The position numbers were made by a program, and so were the translations under genes. Positions 7,101 through 63,100 of a stretch of 64,000 nucleotides of DNA are shown here, piece after piece. Numbering within the stretch: position 1 is the first letter of the stretch; every line of letters starts with the position of its first letter. The DNA comes from Parcubacteria group bacterium Gr01-1014_13 (GTDB taxonomy: Bacteria; Patescibacteriota; Patescibacteriia; Magasanikbacterales; GWA2-37-8), in assembly GCA_007376295.1 (NCBI GenBank), contig VMGB01000001.1:5030-69029 (forward strand). The letters are read 5' to 3'. The notes under the pieces were generated by a model. The model searched no databases. It saw nothing but the letters and a program-made list of their open reading frames with translations, and was not told the origin of the DNA.

Positions 7101-10100
7101 GGAAAGACAATACCTGGTATCAAGTTGTGCTCCGAAGCGGTATTACTGCTGGTGTCGGTACAAGCAGCGCTCCTTTGGCCAAGGATAAACCGTGCGGCGG
7201 AGACTCATCTTACTGTTTTGTTTTTAGGTCTGATTCCCAAGATTGTAAAATGAAACAAGTGGTAATTACTCCATACAGTTATTTTACTACTGTTTTAGAA
7301 GCGCCAATGAAACACAGGACTAATCCGGCAGATGATGGTGAAGACGTTGTTTATTCTGGACACGGATTAAGCACCCAGCATTGTATAATTATGGACACCA
7401 GCATGTTTACCTGGACTTGGGGCAGTAAAAACGCCTATTATGCCGATATTTTTTCTGCAAATAATTCTTCGGCCAAAGTTTCGGCCTTGGCCAACACTGT
7501 AGGTGTAGGTTTAACTAATCCGGAAAATGCTGTGAATGTAAACGCCACCGCCACATTGGCTTCGGCTAGTTTTGGTGGACGCAGTCCGCTCACCATAGAT
7601 TTAAGTAATCCCGAAGTGGTAGATTTCTGGCCAACTTGTTTGCAGTCTTGTACCAACGCTGAAGTGGGTGTGCGTTTTAGCACCACCATGTCGAATAAAA
7701 ATTTGCCGAGCGGTCCGATAAAATTATTAAAATGTGCTGATGAAAATTGTTTCAAGACTACTCCGGTTTTAGCAGATACAGATGTGTTTTTAGACAGCGC
7801 TACCGGATACAGAATTTTAAAACTTGCCAATTCCGGTCTTGGTTCATTAGAGCTGGAGCCAGATACTATTTATAAAGTTGTAATTTCTTCATCCACCAGC
7901 AATGTAAATTCGCCGGAGTTATTATGGTCTGCGGCCAGATTAGGTGATCCGACTACATTTTCGAAGCCATACAAAAAAGAGTTTACCTGGCGTTTTAAAA
8001 CTAAAAAAGAAAAATGTAAAATTCACCGCGTGGAGGTAGCACCGAAAAATTTCTTTGCTGAATTTGTAATTGATAGAGAACTATACAGCGCCCAACCATT
8101 TTCGTCTCCGGACACTTGTAGTGCAGCCGGACAAAAATTAAATCCTTGGATGGTAGGTTGGAACTGGACATCTTCCGCGCCTGCAGTGGCAAAGGTAACT
8201 ACTTTTAGCACCAAAGGAAGCAATCCTTACTGCACTTTGGGTTGTGTGCGTAAAGGTAGTAGTATTCCGGTCGGAGTGACAGGAATTCCAGTTTGCGGCA
8301 ATGGACAACTAGAAGCCGGGGAGGATTGTGATCCGCCGGGCAAAGGAGCTGGTTGTGGTTTAGATTGTCGAAGATTGGGAAATATTAGTACATCTACTTG
8401 TGGAAATGGAATTGTTGAGCCAAATCGCGGCGAAACATGTGACACCGGATCAGCTACTACTTCCATTGGTTGTGGCAGCAACTGTCTACGTCTTGGTTCT
8501 TCAGCGGCTACGGGCGCAACAGTTACGGGTGCCTCTATTTGCGGCAATGGTTCTATTGGTAGTGGTGAAGATTGTGATTTAGGAATTACAGCATCTTCAA
8601 CAGTGGCTATTTCAGCTATGCGTTGTTCAGACAACTGTTTACATTTAGGTACAAGATTATCTAATAACTGGTGTTTTACTAATAGTGTTGGTTTTGGCGG
8701 ATTTGCCCAAACAGAATTTCTATCTGCATGCCGGCTGGCTTTAAGCCGTTGCGGTGATGGGGTAAATAATCCAGATGAAGACACTGGATGTGATTTAGGT
8801 AATGGTAAGAAAGCTGCAAAGTGTAATGATTTTTGTTTGATTAATACTAGCAGCACTTCTCCTCTTGAATGCGTTGCCAACACCGAAGGCTGTGATCAAA
8901 ATGGTCAACATATAGGTTCTTCCTTGCTTTATAGCACACCATCGTTGTGTGGGAATGGACTGGCAGAAATTGGTGAGGATGCTTTTTGTGAAACTAATAT
9001 TATTACGATCCATACCGGATTTAACCCTTGGACTTTAGCTACTGGTATAGGCTTAGGTGTGGCTATTGGAGTTCCAGCAACTCAGCAAACGGATATAAAT
9101 GGTAGTACCAGCGAGCAAACTGCAGGTGGCGGCCCAGTAGGCAACAAAGGTAAATTTATTATTCCATGCGGATACAAAACTGATGCTGAATGTGAAGTGC
9201 GTCTGGGTAAGGGTTGGGGCGTGGCTTCGGACGGCTGTTGTTATGTGCGTCCGAAATTATCAAGTGTTTATCCGGGAAGTACTACCACAGTCCAAGCAAA
9301 TGTTTGCCCAAATACAGCTATCGAAGCTACTTTTGATGATGAGATAGATGTTTCGAGTTTAAAAAATAATATAGTATTGGCCCGCGGTGCCGGCGCCACA
9401 GCTACTTGTAGCGGCACCGAAGATGTTTCTAATTTAGTATTAAATAATCAACCAGTTGATGGAAGTAATTTGCCTTGGTACAAAAAGATTTTTGTAGTCG
9501 TAGTTAATTTCTTCAGAAATTTAGCGGGTCAAGATGTATCTGCGACCCATACCACTATCCAATCAACCAAGTGGTGCGCCGGAGAAGATCTTGGTCAAGG
9601 CGATGTGGTTGTAACCACCGGGACAGAAAGTAAAATTATTTTCAAATTAGATCAGCCGCTAGCTTTTGATACGGATTATTTTATTGCGTTAAAAGAAGGT
9701 TTACGTAGCAAGCGGGGGATAAGCATTGGGAAAAATAATACTACAAATAAACCATTAAGTTGGAAGTTTATTACCGGATCAAAAATTTGTGAGATTGATA
9801 GTGTGGCTGTAGATCCGTCACAAGTTTATTTAAACAAAGCGGGCGTCACCACCACTCTATTTGCCGATGCTTACAATGCTAGTGCGGCAAAGATTCAGGC
9901 TATACCGAGATTTTATGCCTGGCAATATTTATGGCAACCAGTCGGAAATCTTCTTGTAAATCTACAAGAGACAACCTCTTCCCGAAATATAATTTCGGCG
10001 CAAAATCGTAACGGTGAAATTGACTTGCGCGCTTCAGCGGTAATTACTGACAATATTTATTCTAACCAATTTGGCGCTGTGGCCACCGGCAAGTCCCACG

Positions 10101-22828: not shown

Positions 22829-22856
22829 TTGACAAAAGGCGTATTTGTGGTACAAT
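22829..22856 (+). promoter_or_regulatory. Sigma70-like promoter TTGACA-16-TACAAT upstream of the island gene
   Basis: ttgaca at 22829-22834 and tacaat at 22851-22856, followed by an AAGGAGG SD before the ATG at 22997. Confidence 0.5.
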
Positions 22857-22996
22857 ACGCCGCTCTTTTATTTCTCAGCTTTCTTTTGGCTCTGTTTACA
22901 GGTTCAAAAGAAGGCTGGGAAAACCAGCTAGAAGACAAGCCTTATGCTCTGCATGGTGTAGAGTGAGAGGTGAGTCATAAATCAAGGAGGTGCCAA

Positions 22997-23584
22997 ATGG
23001 CACGCACGAAGCAACAGAAGAGCGAGTTCGTTAGTGGTCTCGGCACAGGGTTCGAGTTCGTCAAGGCGATCTCAGATGAGGTCCGAAAATTGGGCGGTAG
23101 TGATGATGATCTTCGTAAGGTCATCACACAGACCGCTTTGCGTCGCAAGATTGCCGAGTCTATCATGGTGGGTCGAGATGGAAGCAAGTTTCCCTCTCTC
23201 GTCCATGCCGCAGAGCTCATCCCCGAGGGATGGACGGTCGTGGAGGATGTCGTTCTGTCGTCATTCGACGTGAGCGGTTTGAAGCCCCGTTCGTTCCTCA
23301 AAGAGCGTGAGACGTCAATCAGCAGCGAACAGATGCGTAAGCGCGCCGCGGAGTTCCACTGCAACCTCGGGCTCTCCGATGCTAAGCGCATGCTTGCCGA
23401 GCAGGATAAGATCCCTGTCGAGTTTCGGGATTTTTATATCCCATTTCCCGGCACGGTTTTGCGCGATCCGGGCGGCGACCTCAGCGTCCCTTACCTCTTC
23501 TTCTACGGCGGTCGTTGGCGCATGGACTTCGTCTGGCTCGGCAACGACTGGGACGTCAGCGATCGGTTCGCCTGTAGCGAGTAG
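22997..23584 (+). CDS. Hypothetical protein (195 aa), a member of a two-copy paralogous family in this window (paralog at 52405..52986)
   Basis: ATG at 22997 with a strong SD aaggaggtgccaaATG. Shares with the paralog: RKRAAEFHCNLGLSDAKRMLAE...IPVEFRDFY...VPYLFFYGGRWRMDFVWLGNDW versus RQRAIKLKANLGLADAQYILGH...IPNEFRKHY...VAFLYWHHSRWFLGFRPAGDSW. Confidence 0.6.
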   Translation: MARTKQQKSEFVSGLGTGFEFVKAISDEVRKLGGSDDDLRKVITQTALRRKIAESIMVGRDGSKFPSLVHAAELIPEGWTVVEDVVLSSFDVSGLKPRSFLKERETSISSEQMRKRAAEFHCNLGLSDAKRMLAEQDKIPVEFRDFYIPFPGTVLRDPGGDLSVPYLFFYGGRWRMDFVWLGNDWDVSDRFACSE

Positions 23585-40277: not shown

Positions 40278-40601
40278 ATGGAGCATGTTTTTACCGAAGC
40301 AAATTTTGATGAAGAGGTTTTGAAATCAAACATCCCGGTGTTTGTGGATTTTTGGGCAGTTTGGTGCGGCCCTTGCCAGATAATGGGTCCGATTGTGGAA
40401 GATTTGGCAAAAAAATATGAAGGTAAAAATATAAAAATCGGTAAATGCAATGTTGATGAAAATTCTGAAATATCTTCAAGATATAATATTTTGAGCATTC
40501 CTTCTTTTGTGGTGTTTAAAAACGGCGAAGTTGTAGATCAGATTGTGGGCGGAGTACAGAAAGAAAAGTTGCAGGCGATGATAGATAAGCACTTGGTTTA
40601 A
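40278..40601 (+). CDS. trxA: Thioredoxin
   Basis: WAVWCGPCQ active site; 107 aa. Confidence 0.9.
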   Translation: MEHVFTEANFDEEVLKSNIPVFVDFWAVWCGPCQIMGPIVEDLAKKYEGKNIKIGKCNVDENSEISSRYNILSIPSFVVFKNGEVVDQIVGGVQKEKLQAMIDKHLV

Positions 40602-40619
40602 ATTTAAAAATAAATTTTT

Positions 40620-40647
40620 AAAAACAGACCGTTCTGGTCTGTTTTTG
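40620..40647 (+). terminator. Rho-independent terminator after trxA
   Basis: cagaccgttctggtctg followed by TTTTTGTGTT. Confidence 0.7.
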
Positions 40648-40649
40648 TG

Positions 40650-40678
40650 TTGACGAAAAGTCTTTTTTGGTATATACT
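40650..40678 (+). promoter_or_regulatory. Strong sigma70-like promoter TTGACG-17-TATACT
   Basis: ttgacg at 40650-40655 and tatact at 40673-40678. An AAGGAG SD lies at about 40689. Confidence 0.5.
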
Positions 40679-40699
40679 ATAGTCCAGAAGGAGAACAAA

Positions 40700-41386
40700 A
40701 TGGATTCCAAACCAATTCGTGTTCCAGCAACAGTCAGAAAGGCGCAGGCGCGATATGCCAAGCTAGAGGCGCTTTATCCGCGCGATTTTGTGCGTGAGAT
40801 GGTAAAGGCGTACACGGACGCCCTTCCTCCGCCCGACGACGCTGTTTTTTTGCCAGACACAAGCCCCGAAGAGCTTGAAGCGGAGATGAAGGAAGACCCG
40901 GAAGATTTGGCGGCTGCGAGCCCCGATGAGCTAGCCGAGAACGAGAAGATGAAGCAGTTATTCCGTGATTTGCGTGGCAAGAAGTTGAGCGAACTGCCTG
41001 AGCCAACGCCAGAGGAAGATGCTGCTCACCTAGAGGAAGAGGTGGACACGGCCATTGCGAACGTGTTGAGTGCGTGGTTAAGCACCTTGCATATTGCCCA
41101 GAAACAGAGTGACCATCCGTTCGGAGTAGAGCTGAATCATACACTCGAGCCGGTTGTTCCAATCCGTTTTGGCGCTAACCCAGAGATGACATGGCAGGAA
41201 GCACCGTGTAATAGCATTTCGATGACTCCAGAACAAGTTGGGAAATTGCACGAAGCTTTTGCTGATAAGCTGCGTCTATTAATCGACGCCGCGCCACCAT
41301 GGGAAGGATATGTTGTGTCAGGTAAAGACCTGGTCATTTATAGATGGGGTAGTCAAAGCTATTGTCTTCGTAAGCCGGGCGTGTAG
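40700..41386 (+). CDS. Hypothetical acidic protein (228 aa) with a disordered Glu/Asp/Pro-rich middle
   Basis: ATG at 40700 after the AAGGAG SD. GC-rich. No family recognised. Confidence 0.5.
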   Translation: MDSKPIRVPATVRKAQARYAKLEALYPRDFVREMVKAYTDALPPPDDAVFLPDTSPEELEAEMKEDPEDLAAASPDELAENEKMKQLFRDLRGKKLSELPEPTPEEDAAHLEEEVDTAIANVLSAWLSTLHIAQKQSDHPFGVELNHTLEPVVPIRFGANPEMTWQEAPCNSISMTPEQVGKLHEAFADKLRLLIDAAPPWEGYVVSGKDLVIYRWGSQSYCLRKPGV

Positions 41387-41422
41387 GGAAATACAGACCA
41401 CTTCGAAATCAAGGAGCCGAAA

Positions 41423-41980
41423 ATGAGGAAAGTATTTCTTGTTTGCGTGTGCTTTATTGCGATTACGTGTAGCAGTGAGCGCAAAGCTGCTTTCGAGTAT
41501 GATGACGTATCAAATGGCCTTCATCTGCAGGTACCTAACCATAGCTGGATCATTCAGTATGATCCTAGTTGCAATAGACAGTTCTGTTGGGATCTGACAA
41601 AGCCGGAAAATGGTGCCAGGATCTATTTGGCAAAAATCAGTTGGCTCGATTCGCGGGGTCTTGTCGTTGAGAGTAATAAACTTAGAGACGAGCTATTGGT
41701 CAACCACGCCAAAGATCTGACACGTGTTTCAAACGTTTCTTGGCTTACTGTTACGCCCGGAGCGTCCTTTGTCTACTTTTCTTGGGATGTTGGTGCCAGC
41801 AAACTTCGGTTTCACGGCGCCTATCTGCAGTTGATTTCCGATTCCACGACTACAAAAGTATATTTGTTCGTGGCCGGGTCTCCTCTCAAGTATGGCGAGC
41901 AAACGGAGCAAGACTTTGTTGATTTTTTAAAAAACGTTGGGCCAGTTGTACCTAAGACGTTAAATCAGCAAACTCTTTAA
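41423..41980 (+). CDS. Hypothetical lipoprotein
   Basis: MRKVFLVCVCFIAITCSS signal with a lipobox-like ITC. Confidence 0.5.
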   Translation: MRKVFLVCVCFIAITCSSERKAAFEYDDVSNGLHLQVPNHSWIIQYDPSCNRQFCWDLTKPENGARIYLAKISWLDSRGLVVESNKLRDELLVNHAKDLTRVSNVSWLTVTPGASFVYFSWDVGASKLRFHGAYLQLISDSTTTKVYLFVAGSPLKYGEQTEQDFVDFLKNVGPVVPKTLNQQTL

Positions 41981-42001
41981 GAATCTCAGTTCATTATATT
42001 A

Positions 42002-42040
42002 GGCGGGCATTGATTTATCGGTGCCCGTTATTTATTTTAT
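42002..42040 (+). terminator. Terminator hairpin cgggca..tgcccg followed by a T-rich tract
   Basis: Read from the sequence. Confidence 0.5.
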
Positions 42041-42041
42041 C

Positions 42042-42070
42042 TTGATTATTTATCTCATTTTAGGTAAGAT
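42042..42070 (+). promoter_or_regulatory. Putative promoter TTGATT-17-TAAGAT for leuS
   Basis: Read from the sequence. Confidence 0.4.
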
Positions 42071-42085
42071 AGTTAGGCAATATTT

Positions 42086-44395
42086 ATGAAAAAATACAAC
42101 CCAAAGAAAATAGAAAAGAAGTGGCAAAAGTATTGGGAAAGCCATAAAACTTTTCAAGTTAAAGAAGATGTCAAAAAAGAAAAGTTTTATAGTCTGATTG
42201 AATTTCCTTATCCAAGCGGTGAGGGTTTACATGTAGGCCATCCGCGTCCATTTACGGCCATGGATGTAATTTCTCGTAAAAAACGCATGGAAGGCAAAAA
42301 TGTCTTGTTTCCTATTGGTTTTGATTCTTTTGGTTTGCCTACTGAAAATTATGCTATTAAAACCGGCAAAGCTCCGGCCGAAGTTACGAAAAAAAATATT
42401 GCCAATTTTACTCGCCAGCTAAAAATGTTGGGATATAGCTTTGATTGGTCTCGGCAGGTAGATACTTCCAATCCGAAATATTACAAATGGACACAGTGGC
42501 TATTTTTACAATTTTTTAAACACGATTTGGCTTACAAAAAAAATCAGCCAATAAATTGGTGTCCAAAGGATAAAATTGGTTTGGCCAATGAAGAAGTGGT
42601 TAACGGTTGTTGTGAACGTTGTGGCACGCCAGTAGAAAAAAGAAACAAAGAGCAGTGGATGCTGGCTATTACAAAGTATGCCGACAAACTTTTGGCTGGA
42701 CTCCAAAATGTAGATTATATAGAACGCGCGCGGGTGCAACAGGAAAATTGGATTGGCAAGAGTGAGGGTGCAGAAATTGTTTTTCCATTGCGGATGATTC
42801 CCGGACAGTCTGACGATAAACATAGCGTGACTGTATTTACCACTCGCCCGGACACGATTTTCGGTGCAACTTTTGTGGCTGTTTCTGCCGAGCTCGCCAA
42901 GAAATGGGTTGATGTTGGATGGCAGGCAAATGAAGATATAAAAAAATATATAGAAGATATTTTGGCGCATCGCAAATCTTCTCGCGAAGAAGAACCGGAA
43001 AAAACCGGTGTTGAGGCTGGAATTGTAGCTATTAATCCCGCGAATCAAAAAGAAATTCCGGTTTGGATTACCAATTATGTTCTTGGGGAAGTGGGAACTG
43101 GAGCAATAATGGGCGTGCCGGCTGATGATGACCGAGATAAAGAATTTGCCGAGAAATACAATTTGCCGATTATTGAAAATTATACCAAAGCAGGATTTGA
43201 AGATCATGGTAAAAGAGTCATACGTTACAAACTTCGCGACTGGGTATTTTCTCGTCAGCGTTATTGGGGTGAACCAATCCCGCTAGTAAATTGTGTACCT
43301 TGTGGTGGTTGGGTGCCATTGCCGGAAAGTGAATTACCCTTGGAATTACCAAAAGTAAAAAAATATCAACCAACAGATACTGGTGAGTCGCCGCTCGCGG
43401 CCATGGAAAAATGGGTCAACACCAAATGTCCACAGTGTGGCGGTCCGGCTAAACGAGAAACTGATACCATGCCGAATTGGGCTGGATCAAGCTGGTATTT
43501 TTTACGCTATGCCGATGCGCACAACGATAAAGAATTTGCTAGCCAAGAAAAATTAAAATATTGGATGCCGGTGGATTGGTACAATGGGGGAATGGAACAT
43601 GTTGTTTTGCACTTATTGTATTCTCGTTTTTGGAATATATTTTTGCATGATATTGGTCTGGTGCCAGTATCCGAGCCATATGCCAAACGTACAGCTCACG
43701 GGTTAATTCTAGCCAAGGGTGGAGAAAAGATGTCTAAATCTAAAGGAAATGTGGTAAACCCAGATGAAGTTGTCGCTCAGTATGGCGCCGATACTTTACG
43801 TACCTACATCATGTTTATGGGTCCGTTTGATCAGGCGGTAGAATGGGATGACAATGGACTAGTTGGAGTAAAAAGATTTTTGGATAAGGTTTGGAATTTG
43901 CAAGAAAAAGTTGTTCCAAAAACAGAGCTAAATTTGAAATTACAAACCTCACTACATCAAACAATTCAAAAGGTGGGGGAGGATATTGAAGGAATGAGAT
44001 TTAATACCGCCATTTCCAAGATGATGGAATTGGTAAATGAGATGTCAAAGGAGGAAAAACTTTCAGCAGACTATTATTCAGCACTTCTTAAAATTTTATC
44101 ACCTTTTGCTCCGCATATGACCGAAGAACTGTGGGGAAATTTGGGAAACAAAAAAACATTGGTTTACCAGTCATGGCCAGAATATAATCCGGAACTGACT
44201 AAGGAATCAACCTTAACTATTGCGATACAAATCAACGGTAAGGTGCGTGACGAAATAATGATTGACGCCGATACTGCCGAAGATGAAGTAAAAAAACTTG
44301 CACTTGCCAGCGAGAAAGTGCAAAAATGGCTGGAAGGCAAAGAACCAAAAAAAGTAATTTATGTAAAAGGAAAACTGGTAAGTATTGTTATATAG
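42086..44395 (+). CDS. leuS: Leucyl-tRNA synthetase (compact, 769 aa)
   Basis: HVGHPRPFTAMDV (HIGH-type) and KMSKSKGN. Confidence 0.95.
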   Translation: MKKYNPKKIEKKWQKYWESHKTFQVKEDVKKEKFYSLIEFPYPSGEGLHVGHPRPFTAMDVISRKKRMEGKNVLFPIGFDSFGLPTENYAIKTGKAPAEVTKKNIANFTRQLKMLGYSFDWSRQVDTSNPKYYKWTQWLFLQFFKHDLAYKKNQPINWCPKDKIGLANEEVVNGCCERCGTPVEKRNKEQWMLAITKYADKLLAGLQNVDYIERARVQQENWIGKSEGAEIVFPLRMIPGQSDDKHSVTVFTTRPDTIFGATFVAVSAELAKKWVDVGWQANEDIKKYIEDILAHRKSSREEEPEKTGVEAGIVAINPANQKEIPVWITNYVLGEVGTGAIMGVPADDDRDKEFAEKYNLPIIENYTKAGFEDHGKRVIRYKLRDWVFSRQRYWGEPIPLVNCVPCGGWVPLPESELPLELPKVKKYQPTDTGESPLAAMEKWVNTKCPQCGGPAKRETDTMPNWAGSSWYFLRYADAHNDKEFASQEKLKYWMPVDWYNGGMEHVVLHLLYSRFWNIFLHDIGLVPVSEPYAKRTAHGLILAKGGEKMSKSKGNVVNPDEVVAQYGADTLRTYIMFMGPFDQAVEWDDNGLVGVKRFLDKVWNLQEKVVPKTELNLKLQTSLHQTIQKVGEDIEGMRFNTAISKMMELVNEMSKEEKLSADYYSALLKILSPFAPHMTEELWGNLGNKKTLVYQSWPEYNPELTKESTLTIAIQINGKVRDEIMIDADTAEDEVKKLALASEKVQKWLEGKEPKKVIYVKGKLVSIVI

Positions 44396-52404: not shown

Positions 52405-52986
52405 ATGGATGCTAGGGAGCAAAGACAAGTGGATCCGACATTGGGCCAGATAAGCGAGCTTTTCGAACAAATTAAGGCAAAACGGATTAATCAGGAGAAT
52501 CTCCAGGCTTTTCTGCGTAATCCAGATTTGTATCTGAAAAGCGATGTCCCTGTTCCAATCAATGCTGCAAATTTGGTTCCCGGTGATTTGGAAGTTATTC
52601 AGGAAGTCGAACCATCAAAGTTTGAAATTTGGCGTCTCGAGGCAGTTCCTTTTTTTGGACAAGACAAAGATACTAATGCAGAAGAAGAAATTACCACTGA
52701 GGTCTTACGCCAGCGCGCAATTAAACTCAAAGCCAATCTGGGCTTGGCCGACGCGCAGTACATTCTGGGCCATCAAGCTGGTATACCCAACGAGTTTAGG
52801 AAGCACTACTTTGTATTTCTAGGTGCGCACCTGAGGGTGCCTGAAAATGGTTTGGTAGTGGCATTTCTCTATTGGCACCACAGTCGTTGGTTTCTCGGGT
52901 TTCGCCCAGCTGGCGATAGCTGGACAAGAAACGGCAGGCTCCTTCGTATTAAACCTGTTAAATCTACCAATAAAGTCCGACCCTAG
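52405..52986 (+). CDS. Hypothetical protein (193 aa), paralog of 22997..23584
   Basis: Shared motifs NLGL(S/A)DA, IP(V/N)EFR and the aromatic-rich C-terminal block. Confidence 0.55.
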   Translation: MDAREQRQVDPTLGQISELFEQIKAKRINQENLQAFLRNPDLYLKSDVPVPINAANLVPGDLEVIQEVEPSKFEIWRLEAVPFFGQDKDTNAEEEITTEVLRQRAIKLKANLGLADAQYILGHQAGIPNEFRKHYFVFLGAHLRVPENGLVVAFLYWHHSRWFLGFRPAGDSWTRNGRLLRIKPVKSTNKVRP

Positions 52987-60146: not shown

Positions 60147-63100
60147 ATGCCTAAGTTTCAAAAATTTGCAATTAAAATTTTAGCAGTAATTTTTATTTTT
60201 GTAACTGTAGTCGGCTCCCTTTCTTCTGCTCAGCCAGCCCAAGCACTTCTTCCGGTGGCAGTTGTTGCTGATGCGCCGACGATAGGTTTTAGAATACTTG
60301 ATGTAATTAAAGAATTTTTAAAAACTGCCACTGTAAGCATAGTCGTTCAATCTGCTTCATATATTATGCGCCGGGTAGCATATGATTCAGCGGTTTGGTT
60401 AGCCTCGGGAGGTAAAGGAGAAACGCCATTTGCTCACCAAAAAGATTTTGGCAGTTACCTAAAAGACGTCGCTGACAACACAGCCGGAGTGGCCATAGAT
60501 GCTTTGGGCGCGCCGTATGGTTTAAATTTGTGTAAAATCCCTGATCCAAAAATTGATTTGGCCATGCGTATTGGTTTGACCAATAAATTTATGGATATAA
60601 ATCAGACACAGGGTGTGCTGAAACCAAATTGTACCTGGTCGAGTTTTCAAAAAGATGTTTTAAGCACCGATAATTGGAAGAGCCAATTCGGTAGCACAGA
60701 CGATATAGCCAAAAAATTTAACGTGGCCTTTTCTGTAGAGCAGAGTGATGTCGGTATTGTGATGAGCGCCACCGAAAAAATTAATAATTTAGTACTCAAA
60801 CAAACAGAAGCCTCTAAGTTGCAAAGACAGGAAGGCCAGGGCTATAAACCAAAAACAACTCCAATCTCCGGCAACATTGTTACTCCAGCTAAGGATATTG
60901 CTAAAGAGGCAGAGGCAATAAGTCCAAGCGAGCAGCAAAAGAAGGCCGAAAGAAGTTTTGGGGATACTCTTGGCACTGGATTGACTGGAGCTATAGTGCC
61001 AGCGCTTTCACTTTTTGCAAATACCCTGCTCTCCAAAATGGTTGAAAATTACCGCACAAAAGGCATGTTTCCTTTTGGAGTATGTATCGGTGATCATGGA
61101 GATACAAGCTGTAAGTCGCTTCAAGATACTCTTACTAACTTAGAAGGCCAAGTAAGTGTGGGTGGACGTCAGGTGGCTGAAGCTTTGTTTGCTGATTTTC
61201 TTACCCCGCCAAATATACAGGTTGATGAGTATAATGTTTTGGGAAATTTTTCTAGTTGTCCACCTACATCACGAGGACCGGAAAATTGTGTCGCTGATGG
61301 CGGTTTGTCTCAAGCGGCTCAGGAAACAAATATTGGCAAGCCAGTTACGGTTGCGGAAGCTTTGGCCAAAAATTGGCTGCATGGGGATTGGAAATTAATT
61401 CCTCCCGAACGTGCTGCTGATCAAACGGACATGAATTGCTATCAAAGAGCTTACTGCTATGCCAATATTGCCAAGTTGCGTAAAGCCAGAGTTTTACCAC
61501 TAGGTTTTGAAATTGCGGCTTTAAACAGCAATCCGGATACTCCTTGGACATTAAAACAAGTCGTGGAAGGTTTTAATGATTGTAATTTTATAAAAGATAT
61601 AAATGGAAAAGTGGTAGGGGTAGATAATGATCCTATAAACAAACCTTTTTGTCATTTAATTGATCCGAACTGGGTATTAAAAGCGCCGCCATCAAAATGT
61701 AATTTTTTGGCCTTTGGTTCTTCGCCGTTCTTTAATGCGGCGCCAAACCGCGCTCAAGAATGCACTGACTTAAGCACTTGTGTGGCTTATGATAAAAATG
61801 GCAATTGTTCAAACCAAGGTTACTGCACCAGAGAACGCAATGTCTGGAAAATAGATGCGGCCAAATGCGATTCCCAATTTCGTACTTGCCGGTCGTTCCA
61901 GGATATTAATGGCAAGACTGTAAGTTATCTTTATCGCACTCTTGATACTGGTTATTGTACTCAAGACAATGTTGGTTGCGCTGCGTATAGTTTAAAACAG
62001 GATAATTCTGGAAATTGGACAGGCTATTCCAAGAACGATATAAATATTGGTGAGAATTCAGCTATCTATTTAAATAACAAAATTTCAACAAATTGTTCCG
62101 TTGGTTCTGATGGTTGTTCGTCTTTCCAAACAGCCAGTACATCAGATCAGCTATACTTACGCCAAGCCCCGTATTATTTAGGATGCTACGATACAAACAC
62201 CGCTACACTAGCAATAGATTGGCCTCAAAGTACTTCTGATCTTAGCAGATTAACTGAAAATCCAAAATGTGATAGTTATTCGTCTGTCTGTATTCCTAGT
62301 GAAGTAAATTGTAATTGGTATGAGCCGGTCAGTTATGCCGGAGATAGTATTCCGGGTAAGTTTGAGCCAGCTAAGATTGTGGAGAGTCAGATAGTTTGGA
62401 ATGATCAATGTGACAAAAGATGTGTTGGTTACGCTGGTTACCGAGAAATGCCAAGCAACTATTCTGATGGCCGAGCTTTAGCTTATATCATCCCATCCTC
62501 AGGTTCAAAATGTAGCGCTGTCGACGAAGGTTGTGCCAGTTTTACCAACCTAAGCGCTACTGTGGGCGGATTAGAAAAAGTAGAACATTATTCTTACTTG
62601 CGTCCTTGTATTTTGCCAGACGAAACCAGACAGAAAAATTTCTATACTTACGAAGGATCAGTAGTGGGTGGTTACCAATTAAAAGGATTTATTTTGGAAA
62701 AAGACACCGATGGCAGTCCTAAATATTTCTATCGCACTAACGAAGATTTGCTTAACTATAACGCCACTTGCAGTGAAGCTTTGTATAAGCAAGGTTTATC
62801 TAGTCCGGATTGTCGTCAGTTTAATGATGACAAAGGAACTGTATACTACAAATTATTGTCAAAAACTATTGCCGTTTCTGGTTCCTGTACGCCGTATAGA
62901 TTAAATGATACTGAGTTGCGTCCGGTAAGTTTAACGCAAGCGCAATGTACTGCTCAAAAAGGATTCTGGGATACTACACAAAACAAATGTAGTGTTTGTT
63001 TCCAAAACGGTGAGTATCGAGACGGACAATGTTTCTATAATGGTCTGCCTAGTGGTGTAGCAAATACAGCAGGAAGTAGTAATGGCTGCGCACCGGAAGT

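Follow-up and report, generated by a model that had tools for sequence, protein, structure and literature searches.

The locus described here lies in a window of 64,000 nt, the whole stretch of DNA that was analysed, from Parcubacteria group bacterium Gr01-1014_13. The window has a GC content of 40.6% and belongs to a contig of 495 kb. Between trxA and leuS it contains an island of two open reading frames (ORFs) and nothing else: ORF1 and ORF2, identical to the GenBank proteins listed in Table 1 (G01um101413_40 and G01um101413_41). We read the island as a flexible islet, that is, a promoter-equipped trxA-leuS slot holding lineage-restricted orphan genes that arrived long ago and whose proteins act independently; we place the probability of this reading at about 0.55.

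A two-gene unit between trxA and leuS

On sequence evidence, ORF1 and ORF2 form an operon that is driven by a conserved promoter and insulated by terminators. The upstream boundary is the intrinsic terminator of trxA: none of 200 shuffled sequences folds as well as its hairpin, which also occurs in the relative L003 (labels of the type L0xx denote loci of relatives, P00xx homologous proteins). No terminator or hairpin was found in the 36-nt gap between ORF1 and ORF2, and ORF2 has a Shine-Dalgarno (SD) site of its own there. The initial annotation had described a strong promoter, an AAGGAG site, terminators on either side and an insulated architecture; all of these are recovered in a two-gene unit with a separate promoter. 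No Rfam element is matched.

Table 1 Features of the trxA-leuS interval, in window coordinates
Feature	Position	Strand	Details
trxA	40278-40601		upstream neighbour of the unit
Intrinsic terminator hairpin of trxA, 12-bp stem then U-run	40619-40647	+	upstream boundary; -14.8 kcal/mol, z = -6.0
Sigma-70-type promoter TTGACG-17-TATACT	40650-40678	+	10/12 consensus positions
Shine-Dalgarno AAGGAG for ORF1	40688-40693	+	6 nt 5' of ATG at 40700
ORF1, 228 aa	40700-41386	+	TSC84656.1
Shine-Dalgarno AAGGAG for ORF2	41411-41416	+	within the ORF1-ORF2 gap
ORF2, 185 aa	41423-41980	+	TSC84657.1
Signal peptide MRKVFLVCVCFIAIT-C16, lipobox-like AITC	41423-41470	+	Cys16 codon 41468-41470
Cys50...Cys55 pair, C-x4-C-W	41570-41587	+	invariant in 10/10 aligned family members, including those 28-33% identical
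Intrinsic terminator hairpin then T-rich tail	42002-42029	+	downstream boundary before leuS; z = -4.2
leuS	42086-44395		downstream neighbour of the unit

At the threshold of 10 out of 12 positions, the region contains 16 promoter matches against 15.6 expected in shuffled sequence, which is chance density, so the consensus match alone proves nothing. The same site can also be read as TGG-TATATA, an extended -10 element. Despite this density the promoter is real as judged from its conservation: the TTGAC, a T-run and the ATAT core within the -10 element do not vary across the aligned loci of 7 relatives, in contrast to the remaining spacer and the neighbouring intergenic DNA, which diverge. In two additionally inspected loci, for a total of 9, the terminator-promoter-SD module precedes other first genes, namely the one for a protein called Y246 in L003 and that of a zinc-finger-like protein in L022. 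Thus the promoter is kept whichever gene comes next.

The SD site of ORF1 is retained as AAGGAG or GGAG in relatives. The ATG at 40700 agrees with this site, with the GenBank call and with the homologs; a 239-aa, TTG-initiated version of ORF1 was rejected because its start falls inside the promoter.

The proteins encoded by ORF1 and ORF2

Searches with both proteins in Pfam, NCBIfam, PHROG, PADLOC and the PDB sequences gave no significant family, as the initial annotation had stated. ORF1 is, as also described there, a highly acidic protein (isoelectric point 4.74; 41 Asp and Glu against 25 Lys and Arg). A signal peptide and a hydrophobic or transmembrane segment were looked for in ORF1, and none was found. 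The description of ORF1 as disordered does not hold: its AlphaFold2 model, built from 11 sequences, has a mean predicted local distance difference test score (pLDDT) of 85.6 and a predicted template-modelling score (pTM) of 0.73, with all five models at 83-86 and only residues 1-4 below 50. The protein is predicted to be compact, folded and mostly helical, with helices at residues 10-23, 28-41, 56-63, 67-71, 75-91, 104-136 and 177-197 and a three-stranded sheet at the C-terminus. Compared by Foldseek with the PDB and BFVD, the model has no fold match.

Motifs conserved in ORF1 include LYPRD-x3-EM-x-K close to the N-terminus, residues W126 and L130 of the long helix, and TWQEAPCNS...TPEQVGKLHEAF...LRPLIDAAP-GY towards the C-terminus. 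The family is small, with 17 relatives in 5.8 billion clustered proteins, profile query included; the ORF1 profile, run against a genome collection and against metagenomes, contributed just one and five loci more. In some genomes ORF1 is accompanied by the zinc-finger-like protein mentioned above, which is about 110 aa long, Cys/His-rich (CGICG...H-x-HD-x-FTCPH) and absent from the window. It follows ORF1 in L014 (2953-3285), precedes it in L022 (520/631-963) and L023, and makes up residues 1 to about 118 of P0005, where it is fused in frame to ORF1. ORF1 is acidic, shows no catalytic signature and is repeatedly adjacent or fused to this protein; from these traits we would assign to it, with low confidence, the role of a cytoplasmic protein-binding adaptor or regulator, in some genomes partnered with or fused to the zinc-finger-like protein.

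The second gene was correctly described as encoding 185 aa. Its product starts with MRK followed by VFLVCVCFIAIT, with a maximal Kyte-Doolittle hydropathy of 3.09 over 12 residues, and has the n- and h-regions of a lipoprotein signal. With the lipobox pattern [LVI][ASTVI][GAS]-C, in which the Cys is invariant, a canonical AI[A/S]C is found at the position of Cys16 in five close orthologs or cluster members (P0013/P0034, P0014, P0015, P0016/P0032). In P0026/P0031 and P0027, which are distant homologs, the N-terminus carries a hydrophobic anchor but no lipobox. A tandem of ORF2-family genes occurs in L001 (6683-7237 and 7402-7953), where the first is a paralog with 41% identity and the second the ortholog; both encode lipobox-type signals.

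The ORF2 family counts about 10 members in total, 6 of them found by word-indexed search. When 1.84 billion representatives were searched exhaustively with a HMMER profile, 8 matches came back, five of which are credible (P0014, P0024, P0025, P0026 and P0027). The other three were judged spurious: P0028 for a low-complexity repeat, P0029 as a DUF1542/LPXTG giant protein and P0030 for a short 'NGSWII' motif.

The AlphaFold2 model of ORF2 (pLDDT 71, pTM 0.70, core 80-91) has the predicted order b-b-b-a-b-b-b-b-a. Foldseek repeatedly matches it to a single fold class, represented by PsbP, DcrB, YwmB, Mtc28, LpqN, SciW/EagT6 and Mog1p. The match to cyanobacterial PsbP (2xb3) has an E-value of 7e-4 and a probability of 1.00; the best geometric match is DcrB (6e8a; target-normalised TM-score 0.50, root-mean-square deviation 3.3 Å over 104 columns, probability 1.00). 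ORF2 is predicted to be an alpha-beta-alpha sandwich of the PsbP/Mog1/DcrB/LpqN type, and Cys50 and Cys55 likely form a disulfide that stabilises the extracytoplasmic domain. Where this fold occurs in characterised proteins, it serves as a non-enzymatic platform for docking in processes of the cell envelope. With moderate confidence, we propose that ORF2 is exported, membrane-tethered and displays a PsbP-like binding module outside the cell, and by analogy it probably works like an envelope docking protein of the DcrB/LpqN type, although it is not filed in the corresponding Pfam families.

DcrB, an inner-membrane lipoprotein of Salmonella and E. coli (DUF1795), resembles the predicted ORF2 protein in several respects: both have about 150-185 aa, are exported, carry a lipoprotein-type signal and pack a beta-sheet on helices. 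ORF2 differs from it by having no detectable sequence similarity, a host in the Candidate Phyla Radiation (CPR) rather than a proteobacterium, a non-canonical lipobox and the Cys50-Cys55 pair, present only in the ORF2 family; moreover, ORF2 is known from sequence and model. The mycobacterial envelope lipoproteins or secreted antigens LpqN (6e5d) and Mtc28 (4ol4), as well as cyanobacterial and plant PsbP (2xb3, 1v2b), share the alpha-beta-alpha class predicted for ORF2 and are, as ORF2 would be, extracytoplasmic, non-enzymatic docking proteins. Compared with these, ORF2 reaches TM-scores of only 0.3-0.45, has no profile homology, and its roughly 10 members come from uncultured bacteria only.

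Content and descent of the slot

Relatives of the locus have the same flanks, infB-trxA upstream and leuS-comEC-methyltransferase downstream. Identities are 95-98% for IF2, 75-94% for TrxA, 78-90% for LeuS, 51-77% for ORF1 and 56-71% for ORF2. The content between the flanks changes. ORF1 followed by ORF2, as in the window, recurs in L006 and L024, where ORF1 carries a +1 T frameshift; L001 has ORF1, the ORF2 paralog and ORF2; L012, L013 and L021 have ORF1 alone. In L002 ORF1 is followed by a gene named X185, in L011 and L020 by one for a 154-aa orphan, and the zinc-finger-like protein joins ORF1 in L014, L022 and L023. In L003-L005 a gene for an unrelated 246-aa basic protein, Y246, overlaps ORF2 by 4 nt. 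Y246, X185, the 154-aa protein, the zinc-finger-like protein and all family members were compared with Pfam, NCBIfam, PHROGs and PADLOC, with sub-threshold matches only (for example, GspM at E 0.029).

Judged from these gene orders, the trxA-leuS slot is a site of gene turnover with accessory content, and the word accessory in the initial annotation was well chosen, as the content differs among relatives with nearly the same IF2. ORF1 occurs without ORF2 in L002, L011, L012/L013 and L007, and ORF2 without ORF1 in L003-L005. Since each gene occurs without the other, they are separable and do not form an obligate pair; we infer that they act independently. A toxin-antitoxin or immunity pair was dropped from consideration, the genes being separable and ORF2 exported.

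Three observations concern individual relatives. The one-base T insertion (L006 at about 7583-7591, and L024) splits the ORF1 ortholog into pieces of 134 and about 100 aa. It marks either a pseudogene or a fault of the assembly; the two contigs, each of about 71.8 kb, may come from the same data. The leuS product has about 1007-1010 aa in L002, L003 and L004 against 769 aa in the window, the gene being some 240 codons longer by an insertion with a HAD_2-like Pfam match; L006 has the short form too. The contig of L011/L020 (CAZQLV010000100.1; 3.7 kb, 42% GC) carries an ORF1 and a leuS typical of this Parcubacteria clade; it was deposited in a metagenome-assembled genome (MAG) named 'uncultured Gammaproteobacteria bacterium' and is probably mis-binned.

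Both genes had been put at 50-56% GC, which applies to ORF1 (52.3%) and not to ORF2 (44.6%) or the whole island (47.9%). For GC content at third codon positions (GC3), the reference set consists of the 51 long ORFs of the window (mean 0.373, standard deviation 0.071). ORF1 has a GC3 of 0.53 and a GC content at first positions (GC1) of 0.63, the latter driven by acidic, Ala and Pro codons. ORF2, with a GC3 of 0.46, lies +1.2 standard deviations from the mean and is not an outlier. The atypical composition and variable presence of genomic islands are therefore found for ORF1 and the slot, ORF2 alone being unremarkable in composition. All low-GC relatives retain the GC3 excess, at +0.06 to +0.25 over the flanks. 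Expression-linked codon bias is an unlikely cause, since no GC3 enrichment is seen in GroEL- and IF2-type genes.

The dN/dS ratios between window and orthologs are 0.13-0.21 for ORF1 and 0.20-0.22 for ORF2; those of the flanks are 0.04-0.16 (trxA), 0.06 (leuS) and 0.02-0.03 (infB). Purifying selection thus acts on both ORF1 and ORF2, which are genuine genes but far less constrained than their neighbours. Their dS of 0.9-1.2 is similar to the values for infB and leuS from the same pairs of genomes (0.8-1.1); trxA is lower, at 0.54-1.18. In a midpoint-rooted tree, the low-GC ORF1 sequences fall into a single clade, from one locus. Since dS matches the flanks and the low-GC clade is single, the genes were inherited with their flanks and were not inserted recently. 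This comparison establishes vertical descent: where present, the islet is old, and it would already have stood in the common ancestor of the clade.

Neither an integrase or recombinase, nor bracketing repeats, nor a tRNA was found: the island is integrase-free and the window tRNA-free, repeats bracketing 40560-42120 are chance 12-mers only, and no window-wide repeats touch the island.

A second ORF1 clade lies on contigs of 63-69% GC (L007-L010, L026/L027 and L028). The context in L007-L010 and L026/L027 is a methyltransferase gene on the minus strand, ORF1 and a TPR lipoprotein; that of L028 differs. These copies have a GC content of 64-69% and a GC3 of 0.80-0.87, equal to their surroundings, and in L007 the neighbouring proteins share 90% identity or more with those of a MAG whose depositors named it 'Patescibacteria group bacterium'. 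The more remote ORF2 homologs P0026 and P0027 (25-33% identity) are encoded between pyrH and rplJ on contigs of 61-67% GC, again next to small ORFs that vary. In L015-L019 (61-67% GC), this pyrH-rplJ interval is another variable slot, in which distant ORF2 homologs lie beside non-conserved small ORFs, and rplJ-rplL is not followed by rpoB.

On the contigs of 61-69% GC, the homologs of both families match their host in composition. Together with the GC3 excess of the low-GC copies, this is compatible with an ancient import that is incompletely ameliorated, and we infer that incomplete amelioration of genes from, or shared with, high-GC bacteria is the best account of the raised GC3. Of the module's proposed acquisition, an ancient import is therefore plausible, given families present in bacteria of 61-69% GC; a recent one is contradicted by the dS values and the single clade. 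The initial annotation had also named, as counter-evidence, an interval conserved in related genomes with host-like composition: the interval is indeed conserved in relatives, yet its composition is not host-like.

Among the 51 long ORFs of the window only three are GC3 outliers: 22970-23584, ORF1 and 61156-61398. The strongest compositional outlier of the window (22997-23584, + strand) encodes a 195-aa orphan with a GC content of 56%, a GC3 of 0.69 and no Pfam match; it has its own TTGACA...TACAAT promoter at about 22829-22857 and a leader of about 140 nt. Its product is homologous to X185 of the L002 slot (34% identity, E 1e-15). A paralog lies at 52405-52986 (+ strand; 34% identity, E 5e-24, GC 46%), preceded by a near-consensus TTGACA-18-TATAAA promoter at about 52304. 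The two genes also resemble each other in their 3' tails (GCGTTCACT...AGGGTCTTTTT), a hint that entire cassettes were duplicated. The third outlier (61156-61398, + strand) is an ORF of 80 aa with a GC3 of 0.59, whose sole Pfam match is sub-threshold, to DUF2389.

Interpretation of the locus

In the reading that we favour, a genus-level clade of low-GC groundwater Parcubacteria keeps between trxA and leuS a slot for fast-evolving orphan genes. Here the slot carries a two-gene operon with its conserved sigma-70-type promoter, a terminator that insulates it from trxA and a second terminator as its end. ORF1 would stay in the cytoplasm, most likely as a protein-binding adaptor or regulator. ORF2 would be exported by the Sec route and anchored on the outer side of the membrane, through lipidation of Cys16 in most orthologs and through an uncleaved anchor in distant homologs, and would present its PsbP/Mog1/DcrB/LpqN-type sandwich, probably stabilised by Cys50-Cys55. 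The islet would have been present in the common ancestor of the clade, the raised GC3 reflecting incomplete amelioration.

Several points weigh against this reading. The confidence of the ORF1 model may be overstated, given its 11 input sequences; the role of ORF1 is a conjecture, and the fusion with the zinc-finger-like protein is known from a single contig of 1.4 kb. For ORF2, only a moderate model was obtained, the other four models scoring 44-66. Its Foldseek matches are weak (E 7e-4 to 1e-2, probability 0.9-1.0, TM-score 0.3-0.5), and no profile link to the Mog1p/PsbP-like Pfam families considered (PsbP PF01789, DcrB/DUF1795 PF08786 and LpqN PF10738) was found in Pfam and NCBIfam searches with ORF2 and 10 family members or among PDB sequences. 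The window lipobox A-I-T-C16 fails a PROSITE PS51257-type rule because of Thr at -1; the earlier call of a lipoprotein is plausible in the light of the signal peptide and the AI[A/S]C of close orthologs, though the window copy departs from the strict rule. Lgt and LspA were not found among 10 scanned ORFs of the window, which covers 64 kb of the 495-kb contig. As for descent, any direction of transfer is tentative, the tree of two clades being midpoint-rooted, the taxonomy of the high-GC contigs is that of depositor labels, with one discordant cluster member (Baltobacteraceae), and the GC3 excess might be kept by selection rather than be a relic of transfer.

The initial annotation had suggested an acquired accessory module, possibly a surface or secreted effector pair; we weighed this as a recent acquisition whose two products cooperate. 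The insulated unit with its own promoter, the GC3 of ORF1, the export signal of ORF2, the fast evolution and variable presence of both genes, and the relatives in high-GC genomes are all in line with it. We regard it as rather improbable: dS equal to flanking housekeeping genes and a single low-GC ORF1 clade at one locus speak for an ancient arrival, integrase, repeat and tRNA are missing, a phylogeny congruent with the host tree is already indicated, and the notion of an effector pair fails on an ORF1 devoid of signal peptide and hydrophobic segment and on genes that each occur alone. The earlier interpretation was thus half right: the module is accessory, atypical and insulated, but it is not recent, disordered or a demonstrated secreted pair. 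Slightly more credible, and still unlikely, is an islet at the phage-host interface or in defence, where ORF2, likened to superinfection-exclusion lipoproteins, would block or modulate a receptor or injection route, with ORF1 acting in the cytoplasm as an acidic decoy or an anti-defence factor and an arms race driving turnover. Content turnover among near-identical backbones, a protein divergence 5-10x faster than that of the flanks and a strong, conserved promoter would suit this idea, as would the structural neighbour DcrB, which is needed for DNA injection by some phages. Yet there are no neighbouring defence genes, PADLOC gives 0 matches, PHROG matches only at E 0.04 or worse, and IMG/VR has no relatives on viral contigs; the whole-gene dN/dS values, moreover, indicate purifying and not diversifying selection.

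We consider it about equally doubtful that these are ordinary lineage-specific core genes whose GC content follows from amino-acid composition (ORF1 being rich in Ala, Glu, Asp and Pro), with neither transfer nor a special slot. The GC1 of ORF1, the inconspicuous ORF2 and the synteny of the locus in relatives agree with such a view. Against it stands the GC3 of ORF1, more than 2 standard deviations above the mean and persistent in relatives, which amino-acid content cannot explain and which GroEL- and IF2-type genes do not share; furthermore, each of the two genes is missing from some relatives, where unrelated genes can take its place. That the ORFs are spurious, or the segment non-coding and merely GC-rich, is hardly tenable: the missing family annotation in any library is outweighed by orthologs at 50-80% identity with dN/dS well below 1, conserved SD sites and structure predictions that are confident (ORF1) or moderate (ORF2), and Rfam offers no match for a non-coding element.

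The flexible islet that we favour has parallels in known systems. Flexible genomic islets, small gene slots that vary between strains, likewise combine conserved flanks (here infB-trxA and leuS-comEC) with variable cargo, atypical composition and orphan genes. The slot differs from them by having no recombinase, tRNA or repeat, by keeping its terminator-promoter-SD module while the first gene changes, and by a cargo that diverged in step with the flanks. A fixed promoter followed by exchangeable small ORFs is reminiscent of integron gene cassettes, but this is a resemblance only: the slot has no integrase or attI/attC-like repeats, and part of the cargo genes come with SD sites and intergenic spacers of their own but share no recombination site. 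Literature searches on the genome name and on DcrB, LpqN and PsbP returned nothing specific to the trxA-leuS locus.

A bolder proposal, to which we give little credence, is that the trxA-leuS interval and sites such as 22997-23584 and 52405-52986 are fixed expression slots, in which small GC-rich orphan genes shared with high-GC bacteria are swapped without a recognisable recombinase, ORF1 being a new fold specific to Patescibacteria. If true, such expression slots would provide the streamlined genomes of CPR bacteria with a cassette-like pool of factors for the surface and for regulation.

The feature itself, a flexible islet of orphan genes, is of an ordinary type in an under-studied lineage, and it makes a modest lead that does not overturn current understanding. 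Mildly notable are a promoter that is conserved while its cargo changes and an orphan, ORF1, with a confident model and yet no structural neighbour. The locus accordingly offers a tractable, promoter-conserved slot with changing cargo, a candidate surface-tethered PsbP/DcrB-like protein and a confidently modelled orphan. Genomes of CPR/Patescibacteria are small and rich in unannotated genes; to learn which of these are constant, which are exchanged and at which sites aids the search for those behind the episymbiotic lifestyle.

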